Shown: positions 2,182 through 9,428, numbered from the stretch's first letter. The stretch: DNA of 11,988 nt from Vulcanimicrobiota bacterium (GCA_003133025.1 PKZK01000013.1:1-11988), one strand, 5' to 3'. Notes: generated by a model from the letters alone, not told the origin. Numbers and translations: made by a program.

Positions 2182-2886
2182 TTGGCGCCAAAGTTTTGCG
2201 CCGTCGTAGTCGCCGCCGGTCGCGGCGTGAGATTCGGCAGGCCCAAACAGATGATCGACATCGCCGGCCATCCGCTGGTCAGTTGGTCGTTTGCGGTGTT
2301 CGGCGGAATGCCGGAGTTGGACGCGCTGGTGATCGCGACGGAAGAAGAGACGGTCGAGGCCATGCGCGGCTTGGCTTCGGCCTACGCGCCGCGCCTCGAA
2401 ACGAAGGTCGTGCGCGGCGGCTCCACGCGCCAGCAGAGCGTTCGTAACGCGCTGGCCGCGGTACCCGACCGCTGCACGGCGGTGTTCGTGCACGACGGCG
2501 CGCGGCCGCTCGTGAGCGAGATCGACGTGCGCGCGGGCATGGCCGCCGTGCGTCCGGGAATCGGCGCGGTGCTGGCCTCGCCGGTGGTCGATACGATCAA
2601 GGTCGTGGCAACGGGCACGCGGAGCGTGGCCAAAACCTTGGACCGTTCGGAACTCTGGGCCGCGCAGACGCCGCAGTTCGCCATGCTCGCCGACCTGATC
2701 GAAGCGCACGAGGCGGCAGCGCGCGACGGCGTCGATGCGACCGACGATGTGGCGTTGCTCGAGCGTCTCGGCTTGGAAGTGGTCGTCGTACCCGCCCGCA
2801 GCGAGAATTTCAAGGTGACCCACCCCGGCGACCTGAGCGTGGTCGAGGCGATCATGCGCGAACGCATCGCCCGCTTGGATTCATGA
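2182..2886 (+). CDS. ispD: 2-C-methyl-D-erythritol 4-phosphate cytidylyltransferase
   Basis: Motifs [46 protein letters not shown] and [13 protein letters not shown] at 2182 follows a GGGGGA SD-like run; 2161 is an alternative start. Confidence 0.93.
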
Positions 2887-3362
2887 GCCTGCGGGTCGGG
2901 CACGGTTTCGACGCGCACCGGCTGGTCGAGGGCCGGCCCTTCGTGCTCGGCGGCGTCACGATACCCTTCGAACGCGGCCCGCTCGGCCATTCCGATGCCG
3001 ACGTGCTGGCGCACGCGATTTCGGACGCGATCCTCGGCGCCTGTGCGCTCGGGGATCTGGGCCGGCACTTTCCCGATACCGACCCGCGCTGGAAGGGCGC
3101 CGACTCGCTGGTGCTGCTCGCGCACTGCATCGGCTTGGCCCGGGAGGCGGGATACGCCGTGCTCAACATCGACGCGACGGTGGTCGTCCAGGCTCCCAAG
3201 CTCGCGCCGCACATCGAGGCGATCCGGGCGAAGCTTGCCCAAACGCTCGGGATCGAAGCGGACGCGGTCGGCGTGAAAGCCAAGACTAGCGAAGGGATGG
3301 GCTATACGGGCGATGGAACGGGCATCGCCGCCTATGCGGTCGCCGCGCTCGAACGTCCCTGA
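2883..3362 (+). CDS. ispF: 2-C-methyl-D-erythritol 2,4-cyclodiphosphate synthase
   Basis: Motifs [41 protein letters not shown] and [14 protein letters not shown] overlap with ispD. Confidence 0.96.
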
Positions 3363-3373
3363 CCTCCGGCTCA

Positions 3374-3982
3374 ATGCATGAATCCGATACCTCGCCGACT
3401 CGCTTCCACGCGCCCGCCGCCGGCGCAACGCCCGAGCGCGCCCTCGAGGACGTCCGGTTGGCGATGCAGCGCGCCGGGTTGCTCGAAGATCCGGCGCCGC
3501 CCGCCGCCCTGCGCTGGATCGAAACGTTCTTGGAGGCCTTCGGCGACCGCCTGAGCGCGCCGGCCGACGCGGTGCCCATCGTGCGCGCTCTCCGCGCCGA
3601 GGCCGCGGTGGTGCCCGCATTGGAACTAGAACGGCTGCGCAACCGCCAGGTGCTGTTCTTCCTCGATACGATCGGACAGTACGTCGATGCGCAGCCCGAA
3701 CTCCGCGGGCTTCCGCTCGAGCACGACCTGCGCGAGATCGCCGCCGAGTTCGGCATCGAGCCCGCCGCCGCGGCGGCGGCGCTACGCATGGCGCTCACCG
3801 GCGAGGCCGATGGGCCGCCGCTCGAATTACTCTTCCCGCTGCTGGGCCACGACCGGATCATGTTGCGCATCGGCGCGATCAGCTCTCATCTGCTCCACGG
3901 TCGAGGCCTCGAGCCGATCCGTTACGGTCCCGACGGCAAGCCCTTCGAAACCCTCGCGGGAAAGAAGCCCGAACGACCATGA
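3374..3982 (+). CDS. Stand-alone protein resembling the C-terminal anticodon-binding domain of glutamyl-tRNA synthetase (no catalytic domain)
   Basis: LREIAAEFGI...LRMALTGEADGPPLELLFPLLGHDRIMLRI matches the GluRS C-terminal LRxALTG...GPxL...LLG...RL pattern. No HIGH or KMSKS motif. It occupies the ispF-gltX-cysE slot and overlaps cysE by ATGA. Confidence 0.75.
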   Translation: MHESDTSPTRFHAPAAGATPERALEDVRLAMQRAGLLEDPAPPAALRWIETFLEAFGDRLSAPADAVPIVRALRAEAAVVPALELERLRNRQVLFFLDTIGQYVDAQPELRGLPLEHDLREIAAEFGIEPAAAAAALRMALTGEADGPPLELLFPLLGHDRIMLRIGAISSHLLHGRGLEPIRYGPDGKPFETLAGKKPERP

Positions 3983-4677
3983 GTGCAGGCCGTGCGGGCG
4001 GGCCGACGATTTGGAAGATGCTGGCGGCCGATATCCGCGTGCCGGTCGAACGCGACCCCGCGGCCCGCGGCGTGGTCGACGTGCTGCTCTCGTACCCGGG
4101 CGTGCACGCGCTCATCGCGCACCGCTTCATCCACCTGCTGCACGGCACGCATCTGCCCTTGCTGCCGCGCCTGCTCTCGACGTGGGTCCGCTTTCTGACC
4201 GGCGTGGAAATCCATCCCGGCGCGCAACTGGGCGCAGGCTTCTTCATCGATCACGGCATGGGGGTGGTGATCGGTGAAACCGTCGAAGCGGGTCGCAACG
4301 TGACGATCTATCAGGGCGTCACGCTCGGTGGCACGAGCCTGCAACGCGGCAAACGGCATCCGACGCTCGGCGACAACGTGACCGTCGGCGTGGGCGCAGC
4401 GGTGCTCGGCGCGATCACGCTCGGCGACAACGTCAAGGTCGGCGCGGGCTCCGTCGTAGTCAAGGACGTTCCGGCGAACTCGACGGTCGTCGGCATTCCC
4501 GCGCGCGTCGTGTTGCAAGACGGACATCCCGTGCGCGCGGGCGCGCCGCCCCACGTCGACATGCCCGACCCCAACGCCGACGCGTTGCGCCGGCTGCGCG
4601 ACCGTCTGGACTCGCTCGAGGCGCGTTTGGCCGAACTGAGCCGTAGCCCGCAATCGTGGGACGATGTCGCGATCTGA
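3979..4677 (+). CDS. cysE: Serine O-acetyltransferase (short type)
   Basis: Motifs ERDPAAR, YPGVHAL, TGVEIHPGA, FFIDHGMGVVIGET, YQGVTLGGT, KRHPTLG and VGAGSVVVKDVP (hexapeptide repeats). Confidence 0.95.
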   Translation: MSAGRAGGPTIWKMLAADIRVPVERDPAARGVVDVLLSYPGVHALIAHRFIHLLHGTHLPLLPRLLSTWVRFLTGVEIHPGAQLGAGFFIDHGMGVVIGETVEAGRNVTIYQGVTLGGTSLQRGKRHPTLGDNVTVGVGAAVLGAITLGDNVKVGAGSVVVKDVPANSTVVGIPARVVLQDGHPVRAGAPPHVDMPDPNADALRRLRDRLDSLEARLAELSRSPQSWDDVAI

Positions 4678-6217
4678 GCGGCCGGGCGCATTGCGCCTCT
4701 TCAACACCCGCACCCGTTCGGTCGAACCGTTCGCGCCGCTCCGCGACGGCCGGGTGCGCATCTACGTCTGCGGCTTGACGCCCTCGGCCGAAGCGCACAT
4801 CGGGCACGCGCGCTCGTTCCTGTTCTTCGACGTGCTGCGCCGGTATCTGGTGCATTTGGGCTATCGCGTCGACCTCGTGCGCAACGTGACCGACATCGAC
4901 GATCGCAGCATCGAGGCCGCCCGGCAGAGCGGCGGCGACTGGCGCGAGATCGTCGGCGGATATTACGCTTCGTTTCAGCGTTCGATGCGTCGGCTGCACG
5001 TGCTCGATCCCGATCACGAGCCGCACGCCACGGCGTACGTGCCCCAGATCCTCGAGATGATCGAGGAACTCGTCGCGACGGGCCACGCCTACGTGGTGGA
5101 GGACGGCGTCTATTTTCGGGTGCGCTCGTTCCCGCGCTACGGTGCGCTCTCCGGCCGCAACCTGGACGAACTGCTCATCGGTGCGCGCATCGCGCCCGGT
5201 GAAGGCAAGGACGATCCGCTGGATTTCGCGCTGTGGAAGTTCGTGAAGCCGGGCGAACCGTCGTGGCCGTCGCCCTGGGGACCGGGACGGCCCGGTTGGC
5301 ACATCGAGTGCTCGGCAATGGCCCGCGAGCTGCTCGGGGAGCCGTTCGACATCCACGGCGGCGGCTACGATCTGATCTTCCCGCATCACGAGAACGAGAT
5401 CGCGCAGAGCGAGTCGCTCTTGCCCGCGCCGCCGATGGCCAACGTGTGGATGCACGGCGGCCTGCTGCTCTTCGACGGGCGCAAGATGTCGAAGTCGCTG
5501 GGCAACTTCGAGCCGCTCTCCGCGCTGCTCGATCGTCACGAGCCGCAAGCGATCCGGCTCCTTTTCTTGCAGACCGGCTACCGCAAGCCGATGAACTTCA
5601 CCGAAGACTCGATCGACGGCGCGACGACGGCACTGCGCCGGTTGCTCGCGGCCTACGACGCATTCCGCGCGGTGCCCGCAGGAGAGGCCGAGGGCGATCC
5701 GCAGGGACTGATCGACGAGTTCGCCCCGCGCTTCTTCGCGGCGCTCGACGACGACGTTAACACCTCGGGCGCGATGTCGGTGCTCTTCGAACTCGCCGCC
5801 GCGCAAAACCGCGTGATCGCGGGCGGAGCCGCATCGGCGGCGGCAGCCTTCATGCATCAAGCGATGGATCTGCTCGGCATCTCGCCCGTGCAGCGCAGCG
5901 CGCCCATCGAGGCGGCGGCGACCGTCAGCAGTTCCTTCCAGGTCGGCGGCGCCGACTACGTGGTCGAGGCGCCGCAAGACGTCGACGCGGTGCTCTCCGA
6001 CGCCGCCTTCGCGCGCTTGCGCGAGGCGCTCGACGGCGCGGTCGAACTCGACGGCGAGCCGAAGGCGCAGGCTGTGGAGTTGGTGATCGTAGCCCGCGCG
6101 CAGGCCAAGTCGGCGAAGGATTTCGCGCGCGCCGACCGGCTGCGCGACGCATTGAAGGCCGCGGGCATCGCCGTGACCGACCTCAAGAACGGAGCATCGT
6201 GGACCGTCGCAGGCTAG
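4664..6217 (+). CDS. cysS: Cysteine--tRNA ligase
   Basis: Motifs YVCG...[69 protein letters not shown] and ALDDDVNT, plus the C-terminal [13 protein letters not shown]. Confidence 0.96.
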
Positions 6218-6993
6218 GCTCGAGACGTCCTCCGCACCGCAAAGAGTCGCTCGACCTCGACGACATCGTTTACGGCGTCCACGCGGTCGAGGAAGCTCTG
6301 GCCGGAAAAGAAGAACTCAAGCGCATCCACGTCGGCGACGAACGCAAACGCGATCCGGCCTTGCGCAAGCTACTCGACGGCGCGCGCGAAGCGGCCGTGC
6401 CCGTGCGCTTCGAGAACCGGTCGTTCTTCGCGCAGTTCCCGTATCGCGCGCATCAGAGCGTCGTGGCCTTCGGCACGCCCTTCGACTACGTCACCTTGGA
6501 AGAAACGCTGAATCTGAAGGCGCCCGGCGGACGCCTCTACGTCGTGCTCGACCACATCACCGATCCGCACAACGCCGGCGCGATTCTCCGTTCCGCCGAG
6601 TGTGCGGGCGCGACCGCGGCGATCATGCCCGAGCGTCGCGCCGCCGGCGTGAACGCGACCGTGCGCAAGTCGGCGGCGGGCGCCACCGCGTATCTGCCGG
6701 TGGCCCGCGTCGCCAACGTGGCCGGCGCGCTGCGCGTGATGAAGAAGGCGGGCGTCTGGATTGCCGGCTCGGCGCTCTCGGACGAAGCCCAGGATTACTC
6801 CGCCGCCGACTTTCGGCGCGACGTGGCGATCGTGATCGGCGCCGAAGGTACCGGCATCTCGCAGGTCGTGCGCAAGGAGTGCGACTATCTCGTGCGCATC
6901 CCGCACTTCGGCAAGATCGAGTCGCTCAACGCGTCGGTCGCCGCAGGGATTTTGCTCTTCGAAGCCCGCCGCCAGCGCGCGACGGCCGGCTAG
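6199..6993 (+). CDS. rlmB: 23S rRNA (G2251) 2'-O-methyltransferase, TrmH/SpoU family
   Basis: Motifs VYGVHAVEEAL, LDHITDPHNAGAILRSA, KSAAGA, IGAEGTGIS and IPHFGKIESLNASVAAGILLFE. GTG start follows GGAG (6191-6194); the exact start is uncertain. Confidence 0.9.
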   Translation: MDRRRLGSRRPPHRKESLDLDDIVYGVHAVEEALAGKEELKRIHVGDERKRDPALRKLLDGAREAAVPVRFENRSFFAQFPYRAHQSVVAFGTPFDYVTLEETLNLKAPGGRLYVVLDHITDPHNAGAILRSAECAGATAAIMPERRAAGVNATVRKSAAGATAYLPVARVANVAGALRVMKKAGVWIAGSALSDEAQDYSAADFRRDVAIVIGAEGTGISQVVRKECDYLVRIPHFGKIESLNASVAAGILLFEARRQRATAG

Positions 6994-7990: not shown

Positions 7991-8015
7991 AAAACTTGAC
8001 ATGAAGCAAAGTTTT
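7991..8015. promoter_or_regulatory. Inverted repeat AAAACTT-N11-AAGTTTT, candidate LysR operator (T-N11-A)
   Basis: Perfect 7-bp arms at 7991-7997 and 8009-8015 with an 11-nt spacer. It lies 45-70 nt upstream of the LysR start and overlaps the -35 of the divergent promoter. Confidence 0.55.
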
Positions 8016-8023
8016 GGTATACT
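7996..8023 (+). promoter_or_regulatory. Sigma70/SigA-type promoter of the candidate ncRNA
   Basis: TTGACA (7996-8001), 16-nt spacer ending in TGn, TATACT (8018-8023). Near consensus with an extended -10; predicted start about 8030. Confidence 0.8.
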
Positions 8024-8029
8024 CATCTC

Positions 8030-8268
8030 ATCCTCGGTGTGTCAAGCTGCTTACACGTAAAGCCACGGTGCGTAGGGGCGCCGTTGGAGGATCGTTCCGA
8101 GCCGGATCTACAGCCGGAGCCCGGCTCGGGTCGAAACGGCCGGTGGAGGACCCCATGCAGGCGTGCTCGTTTCCGCACGGCGGGCACCCCGAAATAGGAC
8201 ATCCTCCGCCGGCTCGTTGGTTTTTCCTAAGACAGGCCGGGGGGCGGGGACTCCCCCCGGCCTCTTTT
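8030..8268 (+). ncRNA. Candidate structured non-coding RNA (~235 nt), family not recognised
   Basis: Bounded by a consensus promoter and an intrinsic terminator, with no credible self-contained ORF. Visible helices: 8097-8105/8121-8129, 8163-8171/8179-8187, 8069-8078/8151-8159 and 8086-8092/8201-8207. Confidence 0.6.
8234..8268 (+). terminator. Rho-independent terminator
   Basis: 11-bp stem AGGCCGGGGGG (8234-8244) / CCCCCCGGCCT (8253-8263), 8-nt loop, followed by CTTTTAT. Confidence 0.8.
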
Positions 8269-8283
8269 ATCAGCCCTTTCACC

Positions 8284-8312
8284 TTGACGCTCTTGCAGGA
8301 CCCTCCTATACT
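8284..8312 (+). promoter_or_regulatory. Sigma70/SigA-type promoter of sigH
   Basis: TTGACG (8284-8289), 17-nt spacer, TATACT (8307-8312). GGAG at 8375-8378 precedes the ATG at 8390. Confidence 0.8.
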
Positions 8313-8389
8313 AGTCGGGATGCGAACGGCTCGACGGGCTCCGGCCCGCGATTTCGCTCGCCTCGGGACCTATTGGAGAAACGACGAGT

Positions 8390-9037
8390 ATGGGGGTTGC
8401 GCAGAGCGCGCCCGACGCGCTCGAGTACCACGAGCGCGCCGACGAAGATCTGGTCTCCGCCGCTAAGAGCGGGGACAACCTTGCCATGGAGTTCCTGCTC
8501 AACAAGTACAAGAACTTCGTGCGCATAAAGGCCAAGAGCTACTTCTTGATCGGAGCCGATCGCGAAGACATCATCCAAGAAGGCATGATCGGGCTCTACA
8601 AGGCCGTCCGCGACTTCAAAGCCGACAAACTTTCGAGCTTTCGGGCTTTCGCCGAGCTGTGTATCACCCGCCAGATCATCACGGCGATCAAGACCGCGAC
8701 GCGCCAGAAGCACATCCCGCTCAACCAGTACATCTCGCTGAACAAGCCGATCTACGATGAGGACAGTGAGCGGACGCTGCTCGACGTGATGGCCTCCCAG
8801 AAGACTTCTGATCCCGAGGAGTTGGTGATCAACCAAGAAGTCTCCGAGGACATCAAGGAGCGGATCCAAGAGAACCTCTCCGATTTGGAATCCCAGGTTC
8901 TGCTTTCTTACCTCGAGGGTAAGAGCTACCAGGAGATGGCCCGGGATCTCAACCGCCACGTCAAGTCGATCGACAACGCGCTGCAACGCGTCAAGCGGAA
9001 GATCGAGAAGAACTTGGCCGAGATCGAGCTGCCCTAG
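8390..9037 (+). CDS. sigH: RNA polymerase sigma factor SigH (Spo0H family)
   Basis: KYKNFVRIKAKSYFLIGADREDIIQEGMIGLYKAVRDF, SFRAFAELCITRQIITAIKTATRQKHIPLN and KSIDNALQRVKRK are hallmark SigH sequences. Its position downstream of cysS-rlmB is also typical. Confidence 0.95.
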   Translation: MGVAQSAPDALEYHERADEDLVSAAKSGDNLAMEFLLNKYKNFVRIKAKSYFLIGADREDIIQEGMIGLYKAVRDFKADKLSSFRAFAELCITRQIITAIKTATRQKHIPLNQYISLNKPIYDEDSERTLLDVMASQKTSDPEELVINQEVSEDIKERIQENLSDLESQVLLSYLEGKSYQEMARDLNRHVKSIDNALQRVKRKIEKNLAEIELP

Positions 9038-9073
9038 CTCCTCGATTCCGAGCCAAAGGACACGAATGATCAA

Positions 9074-9101
9074 CAAGGGGGCGCCGCAAGGCGTCCCCTT
9101 G
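9074..9101. terminator. Stable hairpin after sigH (terminator or processing/stabilising stem)
   Basis: CAAGGGGGCGCC-GCAA-GGCGTCCCCTTG: 12-bp stem with one G-U pair and a GNRA loop. The U-tail is weak. Confidence 0.55.
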
Positions 9102-9156
9102 GAATGTCCGGGCCCGGATGGGTGTGTGGCCGGGAGACGCGGAAGAGGCGTGGGGC

Positions 9157-9229
9157 GCCGACGTAGCTCAGTTGGTAGAGCACCTGCCTTGTAAGCAGGG
9201 GGTCAGCGGTTCAAGCCCGCTCGTCGGCT
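9157..9229 (+). tRNA. tRNA-Thr(UGU)
   Basis: Acceptor GCCGACG/CGTCGGC, D-arm GCTCAGTTGGTAGAGC, anticodon arm CCTGC-CT-TGT-AA-GCAGG, T-loop TTCAAGC. CCA is not encoded. Confidence 0.96.
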
Positions 9230-9428
9230 CAGTTCTTTCGTACGCTCGTGGTGCGCCCGCGTTCCCGGTGCGCTGTGAGTGCCAACGCGATTGCCGCGAG
9301 CCACGCGAACGGTAACGTTTCTCAGCTGAACGAGGCCGTGAGGCGTCCTGCGTCCCTCAGCGGGGCCAATTACGCTCGTCAGTAGCCAACCGGTGACTTA
9401 GGTCCGCCGAAGTACGGCCGAAAAAGGG

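Follow-up and report, generated by a model that had tools for sequence, protein, structure and literature searches.

What remains of a synthetase gene when only its anticodon-binding part is left at the locus, and what might that part still do? The question is raised by a stretch of 11,988 nucleotides (nt) from Vulcanimicrobiota bacterium (GCA_003133025.1, PKZK01000013.1:1-11988), referred to here as a whole as the window. Its genes of the ispD-ispF-cysE-cysS type stand in what is presumably the order found around gltX, the gene for glutamyl-tRNA synthetase (GluRS), in Bacillus subtilis, and the gltX slot between ispF and cysE is taken by an open reading frame (ORF) of 202 codons. The original prediction, made from the sequence alone, read this ORF as a free-standing GluRS anticodon-binding domain, apparently repurposed. 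Our analysis leads us to favour, with a probability of about 0.5 for the reading as a whole, a non-catalytic domain that derives from an older synthetase of the slot (type A below), is maintained by selection and would bind the anticodon arm of a tRNA in trans.

The ORF (3374..3982, plus strand) starts with ATG and has zero internal stops; the end of ispF at 3362 leaves a gap of 11 nt before it, and its TGA at 3980-3982 overlaps the cysE ATG at 3979 in an ATGA, all as first described. The Anticodon_2 profile PF19269 matches residues 46-167 over profile positions 13-138 of 141 (E 2.8e-8; 34.7 bits, above the cut-off of 23.6), the GluRS model TIGR00464 matches at positions 347-464 of 470 only (21.1 bits, below its equivalog cut-off of 289.95), and the class I catalytic domain PF00749, which carries the HIGH and KMSKS motifs, gave no match on the ORF. 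NCBIfam also matched the glutamyl-tRNA reductase family NF000744, with E 0.0099 and 14.8 bits where the cut-off is 429; this was taken as chance. An AlphaFold2 model built on 33 orthologues reaches a predicted local distance difference test (pLDDT) value of 88.6 and a predicted template modelling score of 0.81, and the stretch before the domain, which is unconserved among orthologues, varies from 0 to 35 amino acids (aa) with a median of 13. Foldseek matches of the model at E <= 1e-3 are bacterial GluRS exclusively, with a probability of 1.0 to GluRS chains, and in the VIA-align superposition residues 15-177 of the model fall on 324-485 of T. elongatus GluRS (2cfo_A) with a Z of 15.8 and a root-mean-square deviation of 2.5 Å over 159 residues. 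The top 26 VIA entries consist of 25 GluRS entries and a class I LysRS (Z 9.3-15.8), the next entry having a Z of 4.1. The Pfam, AlphaFold2, Foldseek and VIA-align results together show that the ORF encodes GluRS domains 4-5 and nothing else (Table 1), and the claim of a synthetase-derived free domain that resembles only the C-terminal part of GluRS is borne out.

Table 1. The domain gene, its parts and its neighbours, in positions of the window.
Feature	Residues	Position	Strand	Remarks
Free-standing GluRS-type anticodon-binding domain gene		3374..3982	+	202 aa + stop; PF19269, AlphaFold2, Foldseek, VIA, dN/dS
Variable low-confidence N-terminal leader	1-19	3374..3430	+	pLDDT <50 at residues 1-3, 5-14
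Predicted all-helical cage, equivalent of GluRS domains 4-5	20-175	3431..3898	+	eight helices, pLDDT 92-98
Best-conserved motif LRMALTG..GPPL..LLG..R	137-165	3782..3868	+	from GluRS anticodon pocket region
Conserved C-terminal tail (HGRGLEPIxYGPDGxPF type)	176-202	3899..3979	+	pLDDT 75-82
ispF, upstream neighbour		2883..3362	+	PF02542 E 9.4e-66; TIGR00151
cysE, start overlapping domain ORF stop (ATGA)		3979..4677	+	TIGR01172 228.9 bits
cysS		4664..6217	+	TIGR00435 454 bits

A bare domain of this kind could also be half of a split GluRS, an assembly artefact or the product of a recent deletion, and the fragmented state of the window genome would fit such a view. This genome (G000), like nearly all those compared here, is a metagenome-assembled genome (MAG), 80% complete and in 265 contigs, and its single catalytic gltX is cut over two contig ends (C226:3727-4659 and C198:5209-5961; loci L001 and L003). 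The two ends share an identical overlap of ~73 residues and therefore represent one full-length GluRS gene, of the type called C below, at an assembly break; the search for a full-length gltX that was originally proposed thus finds one catalytic GluRS elsewhere in the genome. In four closed genomes of relatives with the free domain (G004, G006, G009, G023) there is one PF00749 match each, adjoining its own Anticodon_2 domain, and PF00749 found no catalytic-only GluRS partner in these four; nor did a second catalytic match of the glutaminyl-tRNA synthetase (GlnRS) type turn up with this profile. A single PF00749 match is found in 126 of the 151 family genomes sampled. The matches to ispF and to the domain lie at most 104 nt apart in 17 family loci, which therefore have no room for a catalytic domain between them. 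Contigs of two other studies, covering 2909-4268 and 2921-4039 with one mismatch each, bridge ispF, the ORF and cysE, and 18 peat or permafrost metagenome runs contain 0.75-0.99 of the sampled words of the stretch 2883-4700. With the four closed genomes the idea of a split enzyme, one of the options in the original prediction, falls away, and we regard a split, an artefact or a recent deletion as scarcely credible. Two contigs from RNA libraries match exactly (3148-3380 and 3628-3778) and give a weak hint of transcription; they cover only 8 and 10 of 30 bins, and the bins left uncovered carry no weight either way. A contig of run X4 in which 3348 is followed by 3692, so that 343 nt are missing, and which has only 24 letters on one side, was disregarded as probably another organism's. 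Weak short profile matches, considered as candidates for other independent free GluRS anticodon domains, are mostly contig-end fragments of ordinary GluRS; they score 54-124 bits on the generic Anticodon_2 profile, and many begin with the end of a PF00749 match.

The gene is also kept. The domain ORF was matched in 37 of 41 relatives, including 23 of the 24 genomes of the same family, the one in which it is missing being 75% complete, and 30 alignment columns are invariant in 33 sequences. The median ratio of nonsynonymous to synonymous substitution rates (dN/dS, NG86 method) is 0.21 for the domain ORF against 0.19 for ispF and 0.27 for cysE, in 153 pairs from 18 genomes that include no unpublished one and in which dS is high, near saturation. 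Purifying selection acts as strongly on the domain gene as on ispF and cysE, and the dN/dS comparison proposed at the outset speaks of maintenance, not decay. The subfamily is narrow, with 96 representatives of 1.84 billion reaching E <= 1e-3; at 90% clustering it has more than 1000 database proteins, which are named 'hypothetical', 'anticodon binding domain' or even 'glutamyl/glutaminyl-tRNA synthetase'. The source names of close homologues are Candidatus Eremiobacterota, Baltobacteraceae, Vulcanimicrobiaceae or Vulcanimicrobiota; the comparison with Bacillota first drawn thus holds for the gene order but not for the taxon, as the Eremiobacterota names indicate.

It is against this background that a functionless remnant has to be weighed, which would be kept open only for the expression of cysE and cysS, by translational coupling or through polarity. 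The ATGA overlap with cysE in the window fits this idea, as does the lack of an Rfam leader or T-box that might drive cysE and cysS separately: at gathering thresholds the window gave tRNAs only, and the loci of 14 relatives gave no such element upstream of cysE. A T-box-regulated gltX-cysE-cysS operon is a feature of Bacillota. But the gap between slot gene and cysE is ~5-70 nt in 19 of the 20 relatives' loci that bear cysE, with an overlap only in L011, and the domain persists at loci without cysE, cysS then following it directly (G023, G140 and G002, including loci L042, L025 and L044). Together with the dN/dS of 0.21, the 30 invariant residues and independent deletions that end at one common domain boundary, this makes a remnant very improbable.

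How the domain came to stand alone can be followed in its relatives. A full gltX with HIGH and KMSKS occupies the slot in G012 and G013 of the same family, in the sister family (G025-G027) and in a distant family (G033, G034, G039, G040). A search that scored only the 8000 candidates sharing most words found at least 156 longer homologues; by regular expressions, 13 of the best 120 of these 156 are motif-intact, 105 eroded and 2 cut at the N-terminus, 'intact' meaning intact in these motifs only and the P-numbered proteins being without genomic context. The eroded forms are 430-490 aa long and have a common deletion of G012 positions 110-150. Their pairwise identity is 0.78 in the C-domain versus 0.57 in the N-part, the C-domain being the more conserved in 5460 of 5460 pairs, and the same holds for 95% of 91 pairs of intact forms; this appears to be the reverse of the usual synthetase pattern. 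Public genomes of a single genus, g24, span the series: seven have the eroded gene followed by cysE and cysS, an eighth locus (G177) ends inside cysE, G125 and G182 have the eroded gene and cysS without cysE, and in G140 and G023 the bare domain is followed by cysS. In this genus the catalytic motifs are destroyed differently from species to species, and the N-part has a dN/dS of 0.37, the C-domain one of 0.23, with the higher value in the N-part in 28 of 28 pairs. The G023 lineage has lost both the eroded catalytic part and cysE from its locus L042, where a gene for a 1023-aa AAA_16 and LuxR-type regulator lies between ispF and the domain gene (3533-6604, minus strand). Many eroded relatives of 448-495 aa without HIGH or KMSKS, P0143, P0146, P0156, P0178, P0182, P0198 and others, are listed at their source as 'nondiscriminating glutamyl-tRNA synthetase' or 'glutamyl/glutaminyl-tRNA synthetase'; they are probably over-annotated pseudo-enzymes.

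The phylogeny of the C-domain (IQ-TREE; 71 rows and 187 columns, built on published genomes with the frameshifted G015 and the long-branch G013 set aside) places 34 of the 36 standalone rows, the window included, in one all-standalone clade with a support of 96/92. Its sister clade (99/94) consists of 23 eroded rows and the 2 standalone rows G023 and P0110, both clades jointly are supported at 98/95, and the intact forms lie outside them together with a separately eroded lineage, P0149. The standalone state requires three changes, and the starred branches force three; the standalone status of P0110 depends on its gene call, and G023 and G140 are standalone within a genus of eroded forms. An earlier tree of 27 rows, two unpublished genomes among them, agrees with this picture. 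A FastTree of 261 rows had placed the eroded clade inside a standalone grade, with many truncations, which the IQ-TREE analysis of 71 rows did not uphold; since the latter puts the main standalone group in one clade, we claim only three or more origins. The catalytic half was thus deleted at least three separate times, the window belonging to a large and old clade. That G012 and G013 carry a full gltX in the slot might seem to bring back the recent deletion or artefact which the original prediction had named among the outcomes that would refute it, but this does not follow, because the clade that is standalone in 34 of 34 rows (96/92) is old, under purifying selection and seen in independent assemblies. 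An origin from a type A gltX and maintenance by selection are therefore the parts of our reading that we hold with the greatest confidence.

The loss of catalysis has a counterpart elsewhere in these genomes, where two further types of GluRS are encoded, type B (HVGG-type) and type C (HVGT-type), beside type A, the slot gene. At the column of R358 in T. thermophilus GluRS (Tth), type A has Glu and types B and C have Arg; at the column of Tth T444, type A has Gly, type B Ser, and type C Ser, Gly or Ala. The best match of type C in the PDB is P. aeruginosa GluRS, type C being Thermus/Pseudomonas-like. When type B was called at E <= 1e-150 and type C at E <= 1e-120, in tallies that include three unpublished genomes, a sample of 61 genomes contained 6 with type B and 55 with type C, none with both and none with neither (type B at loci L056, L060, L063, L070, L072 and L073, type C at L043, L057-L059 and L064-L066). 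The six genomes with type B are G012, G013, G056, G062, G068 and G080; type A was checked in five of them and is intact in all five, and G094, outside the sample, also has an intact A together with B. Wherever type A is intact (G012, G013, G056, G062, G068, G094) it is paired with type B and there is no further PF00749 match, and in 8 of 8 genomes examined with an eroded or bare slot gene there is type C only. Type C is the sole catalytic GluRS of most genomes in the family; type B was not found in any genome that has it, and there the type A gene has lost either HIGH/KMSKS or its whole catalytic half. The erosion of type A thus appears to coincide with a synthetase swap: type C, which may have been acquired horizontally, would have replaced a dual A+B system in which type B was lost and type A lost its catalysis while its C-domain was retained.

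Such a swap raises the thought that the free type A domain docks on type C GluRS, or works with it, as a specificity factor in trans, so that tRNA-Gln is glutamylated. There is no GlnRS or second catalytic GluRS, and in each of the 8 genomes examined that have a free domain or an eroded slot gene, type C carries an Arg of the 'discriminating' kind at the Tth R358 column. A 2009 report describes, going by its title alone, the stimulation of a C-truncated E. coli GluRS by its free distal domain. Type C has a complete anticodon domain of its own, however, and in the free domain the residue at the column that should read base 36 is not constant. The R358 rule is moreover not universal, according to PMC3927822, and we consider a specificity factor improbable.

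What, then, is the domain for? A leftover domain that stays under strong selection after the loss of its catalytic half should have a role other than charging tRNA, and a non-catalytic function is in our view very probable; in this sense we infer, with the original prediction, that the domain has been repurposed. Such a function would have been present in the type A enzyme before catalysis was lost, because the C-domain of type A had diverged, had gained its tail and was better conserved than the catalytic half in enzymes that are still intact. A long stem of 1.67 changes per site (100/100) separates the C-domains of the family type from those of the sister family and thus suggests that the divergence had already taken place in intact enzymes. 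The extra tail noticed from the start is real and well conserved (H175, G176, R177, G178, L179, G185, P186, G188, P190 and F191 at 90% or more), but it is not tied to the free form: it is present in full-length G012, G027 and G029 and absent in G025, G026, G013 and G010, and its occurrence in full-length G012 and G027 indicates that it predates the truncation. Most GluRS structures in the VIA comparison do not cover this region.

The residues of the domain give the favoured reading its more specific form. R138, A140, G147, P155, L157, G158, R161 and R165 are the same in all 33 sequences. R138, G147 and L150 of the window protein correspond without gaps to Tth R435, T444 and L447, and R161 and R165 are aligned with Tth R458 and R462; Tth R435, T444 and L447 are presumably residues that contact the anticodon. 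In intact type A (G012, G056b, G062a) the two anticodon-specificity columns hold Glu and Gly. The window ORF keeps the invariant Gly (G147) but has Arg at the other, variable column, the column of Tth R358 as mapped via T. maritima GluRS1, where G012 has Glu; the equivalence between H. pylori (Hp) and Tth positions used here, Hp E334 with Tth R358 and Hp G417 with Tth T444, is one that we infer. According to PMC2978374, the exchange R358Q relaxes the discrimination of Tth GluRS, and E334R/G417T turns Hp GluRS2 from tRNA-Gln-preferring to tRNA-Glu-specific, G417T being confirmed in PMC2777447.

On these grounds we suggest that the domain may still bind the anticodon arm of a tRNA in trans, most likely that of tRNA-Gln (or tRNA-Glu). 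Binding of the arm is favoured because the block best kept is the motif of the inherited pocket and the ancestor resembles a GluRS2, and tRNA-Gln because intact type A shares the Glu/Gly pair with the tRNA-Gln-specific GluRS2 of H. pylori. The domain would then serve the indirect route to Gln-tRNA-Gln, with one GluRS, GatCAB and no GlnRS, for instance by retaining Glu-tRNA-Gln or passing it on. GatB is present, as are genes for tRNA-Gln (CTG, TTG) and tRNA-Glu (CTC). Taken by itself, arm binding is a tentative proposal, which we put somewhat below even odds. A bolder form of it, in which the domain is a detached tRNA-Gln 'anticodon reader' and a relic of a GluRS2-like enzyme, seems to us unlikely. 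As such it might license type C GluRS, lending an enzyme with the discriminating-type Arg the ability to glutamylate tRNA-Gln, or it might escort mischarged Glu-tRNA-Gln to GatCAB, clamping its anticodon and keeping it off the ribosome.

Several observations weigh against the binding of tRNA, or against the reading that includes it. The score of the domain on the generic Anticodon_2 profile, 34.7 bits, compares with 96.9 for the GluRS of the same genome, which indicates divergence from ordinary tRNA-binding domains. The free forms no longer have the Lys-rich patch that precedes the RxALTG motif; the Ala-rich stretch that had been remarked on in its place is real, GIEPAAAA in the window against GLKKKEAF in the intact paralogue of G012. 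The free domains are acidic, with a net charge of -7 to -15 and an isoelectric point of 4.5-5.3, whereas the domain of full-length type A has a charge of 0 to -6. The Tth R358 column is unconstrained in them (R/S/G/K/Q/E/H/N/L/D), the columns of R417 and K426 (Lys-rich patch in G012) vary, and base-specific reading of the anticodon may therefore no longer be selected. Gly at the Thr444 column is unspecific, as it also occurs in T. maritima GluRS1 and M. fumariolicum GluRS. Two orthologues look damaged: in the closed genome G015 (L027 3004-3511) the frame changes just before the tail, giving two matches in different frames, and in G010 (L026 2992-3444) the gene ends early, without the tail; the genes may be decaying locally, the sequences may contain errors, or the tail may be dispensable. 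Finally, support for transcription consists of only the two exact RNA-library contigs, and at 80% completeness counts within the window genome are weak.

The same observations lend weight to the main rival, a protein-binding adaptor or regulator which would not bind tRNA at all and whose surface and tail would bind GatCAB, type C GluRS, CysRS, CysE or glutamyl-tRNA reductase, much as HisZ, a dead HisRS paralogue, regulates HisG. Such a role would suit the acidic charge, the loss of the Lys patch, specificity columns free to vary and the low generic score, as well as the conserved family-specific motif PALELERLRxR and the strongly conserved Gly/Pro-rich tail, which is not found in ordinary GluRS. 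The domain stop overlaps the cysE start in the window, and in rearranged loci (G023, G140, G002, G125, G182) cysS still follows the gene directly, but the ancestral operon already had the gene next to cysE and cysS, which makes this adjacency weak evidence, and the best-conserved block is itself inherited from the GluRS anticodon pocket. A complex prediction for CysRS and the domain, run twice, stayed at a score of 0.00 where 0.32 was the mark, and speaks neither for nor against binding. We rate the adaptor as possible, though clearly less probable than the favoured reading of a selected, non-catalytic domain that binds the anticodon arm.

A comparison with known systems places the domain more precisely. 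Bacterial GluRS C-domains (T. elongatus 2cfo, T. thermophilus 1j09/1g59) have the same predicted fold and the same RxALTG...P.L...LG...R motif, with equivalents of R435, L447, R458 and R462 kept in the window domain, but the window protein stands alone, is acidic, has a family-specific motif and a conserved tail, and scores 34.7 bits against ~97. GluQRS/YadB (PDB 1nzj) is likewise a GluRS paralogue cut to one half, and is an active enzyme kept for a new role; the half retained in the window is the opposite one, without any catalytic residues, and the description of the domain as the mirror image of the catalytic-only GluQRS is thus apt as regards architecture. Other domains and pseudoenzymes derived from aminoacyl-tRNA synthetases, such as HisZ, the HisRS-like domain of GCN2, Trbp111 and AlaX/YbaK, are kept for roles other than aminoacylation; they differ in synthetase, fold and domain, and the eroded relatives of 430-490 aa would be pseudo-synthetases likewise. 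The distal domain of E. coli GluRS (Dubois et al. 2009, by title alone) is also a free GluRS C-terminal domain that acts in trans, but there the partner is a laboratory C-truncated enzyme, whereas the window organism has a full-length GluRS of another lineage. The GluRS2 of H. pylori resembles intact type A, which coexists with a second GluRS in the lack of GlnRS and has the Glu/Gly columns (PMC2777447 and PMC2978374); the type A lineage differs in that it lost catalysis and survives as an anticodon domain, and its tRNA-Gln specificity is only putative. Free-standing anticodon-binding domains are mentioned as a general category in PMC5388404, and full-text literature searches turned up neither a free GluRS C-terminal domain nor decaying GluRS paralogues in Eremiobacterota.

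By Pfam and NCBIfam the genes of the window are, in sequence, a HemN-like radical-SAM gene, a PIN-TRAM gene (yacL-like), ispD, ispF, the domain ORF, cysE, cysS and a SpoU methylase gene; beyond this follow a LysR gene on the opposite strand and a gene for a SigH-like sigma factor (8390-9037), whose position presumably matches that of sigH downstream of cysS in Bacillus. The sigma factor gene lies in the part of the window with the lowest GC content (8014-9230, 0.59 versus ~0.68), with ~370 nt without a convincing ORF upstream of it and a tRNA gene at 9157-9229 downstream. In the window genome ARAGORN predicts 51 tRNAs, three of them tRNA-Cys(GCA) (C31:16408-16496, C153:5050-5122 and C238:14803-14875), one of which has a predicted length of 89 nt, which is unusually large for a tRNA-Cys.

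One family thus preserves all stages from an intact enzyme through a motif-dead pseudo-synthetase to a bare domain, which amounts to a natural experiment. As the domain was kept after at least three deletions while type B vanished, the C-domain of type A would have had a role beyond its own active site. This bears on whether GluRS anticodon domains once existed, and can exist today, as proteins of their own, on the roles that enzymes of the GluRS2 type may have besides the charging of tRNA-Gln, such as the formation of a transamidosome, and on how one synthetase replaces a dual system. A practical consequence is that many database entries of 430-490 aa named 'nondiscriminating glutamyl-tRNA synthetase' which lack HIGH and KMSKS are probably not enzymes. 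Were the domain indeed a detached reader of the tRNA-Gln anticodon, it would be a natural minimal component of a transamidosome, and GluRS anticodon domains would be able to work as separate proteins.

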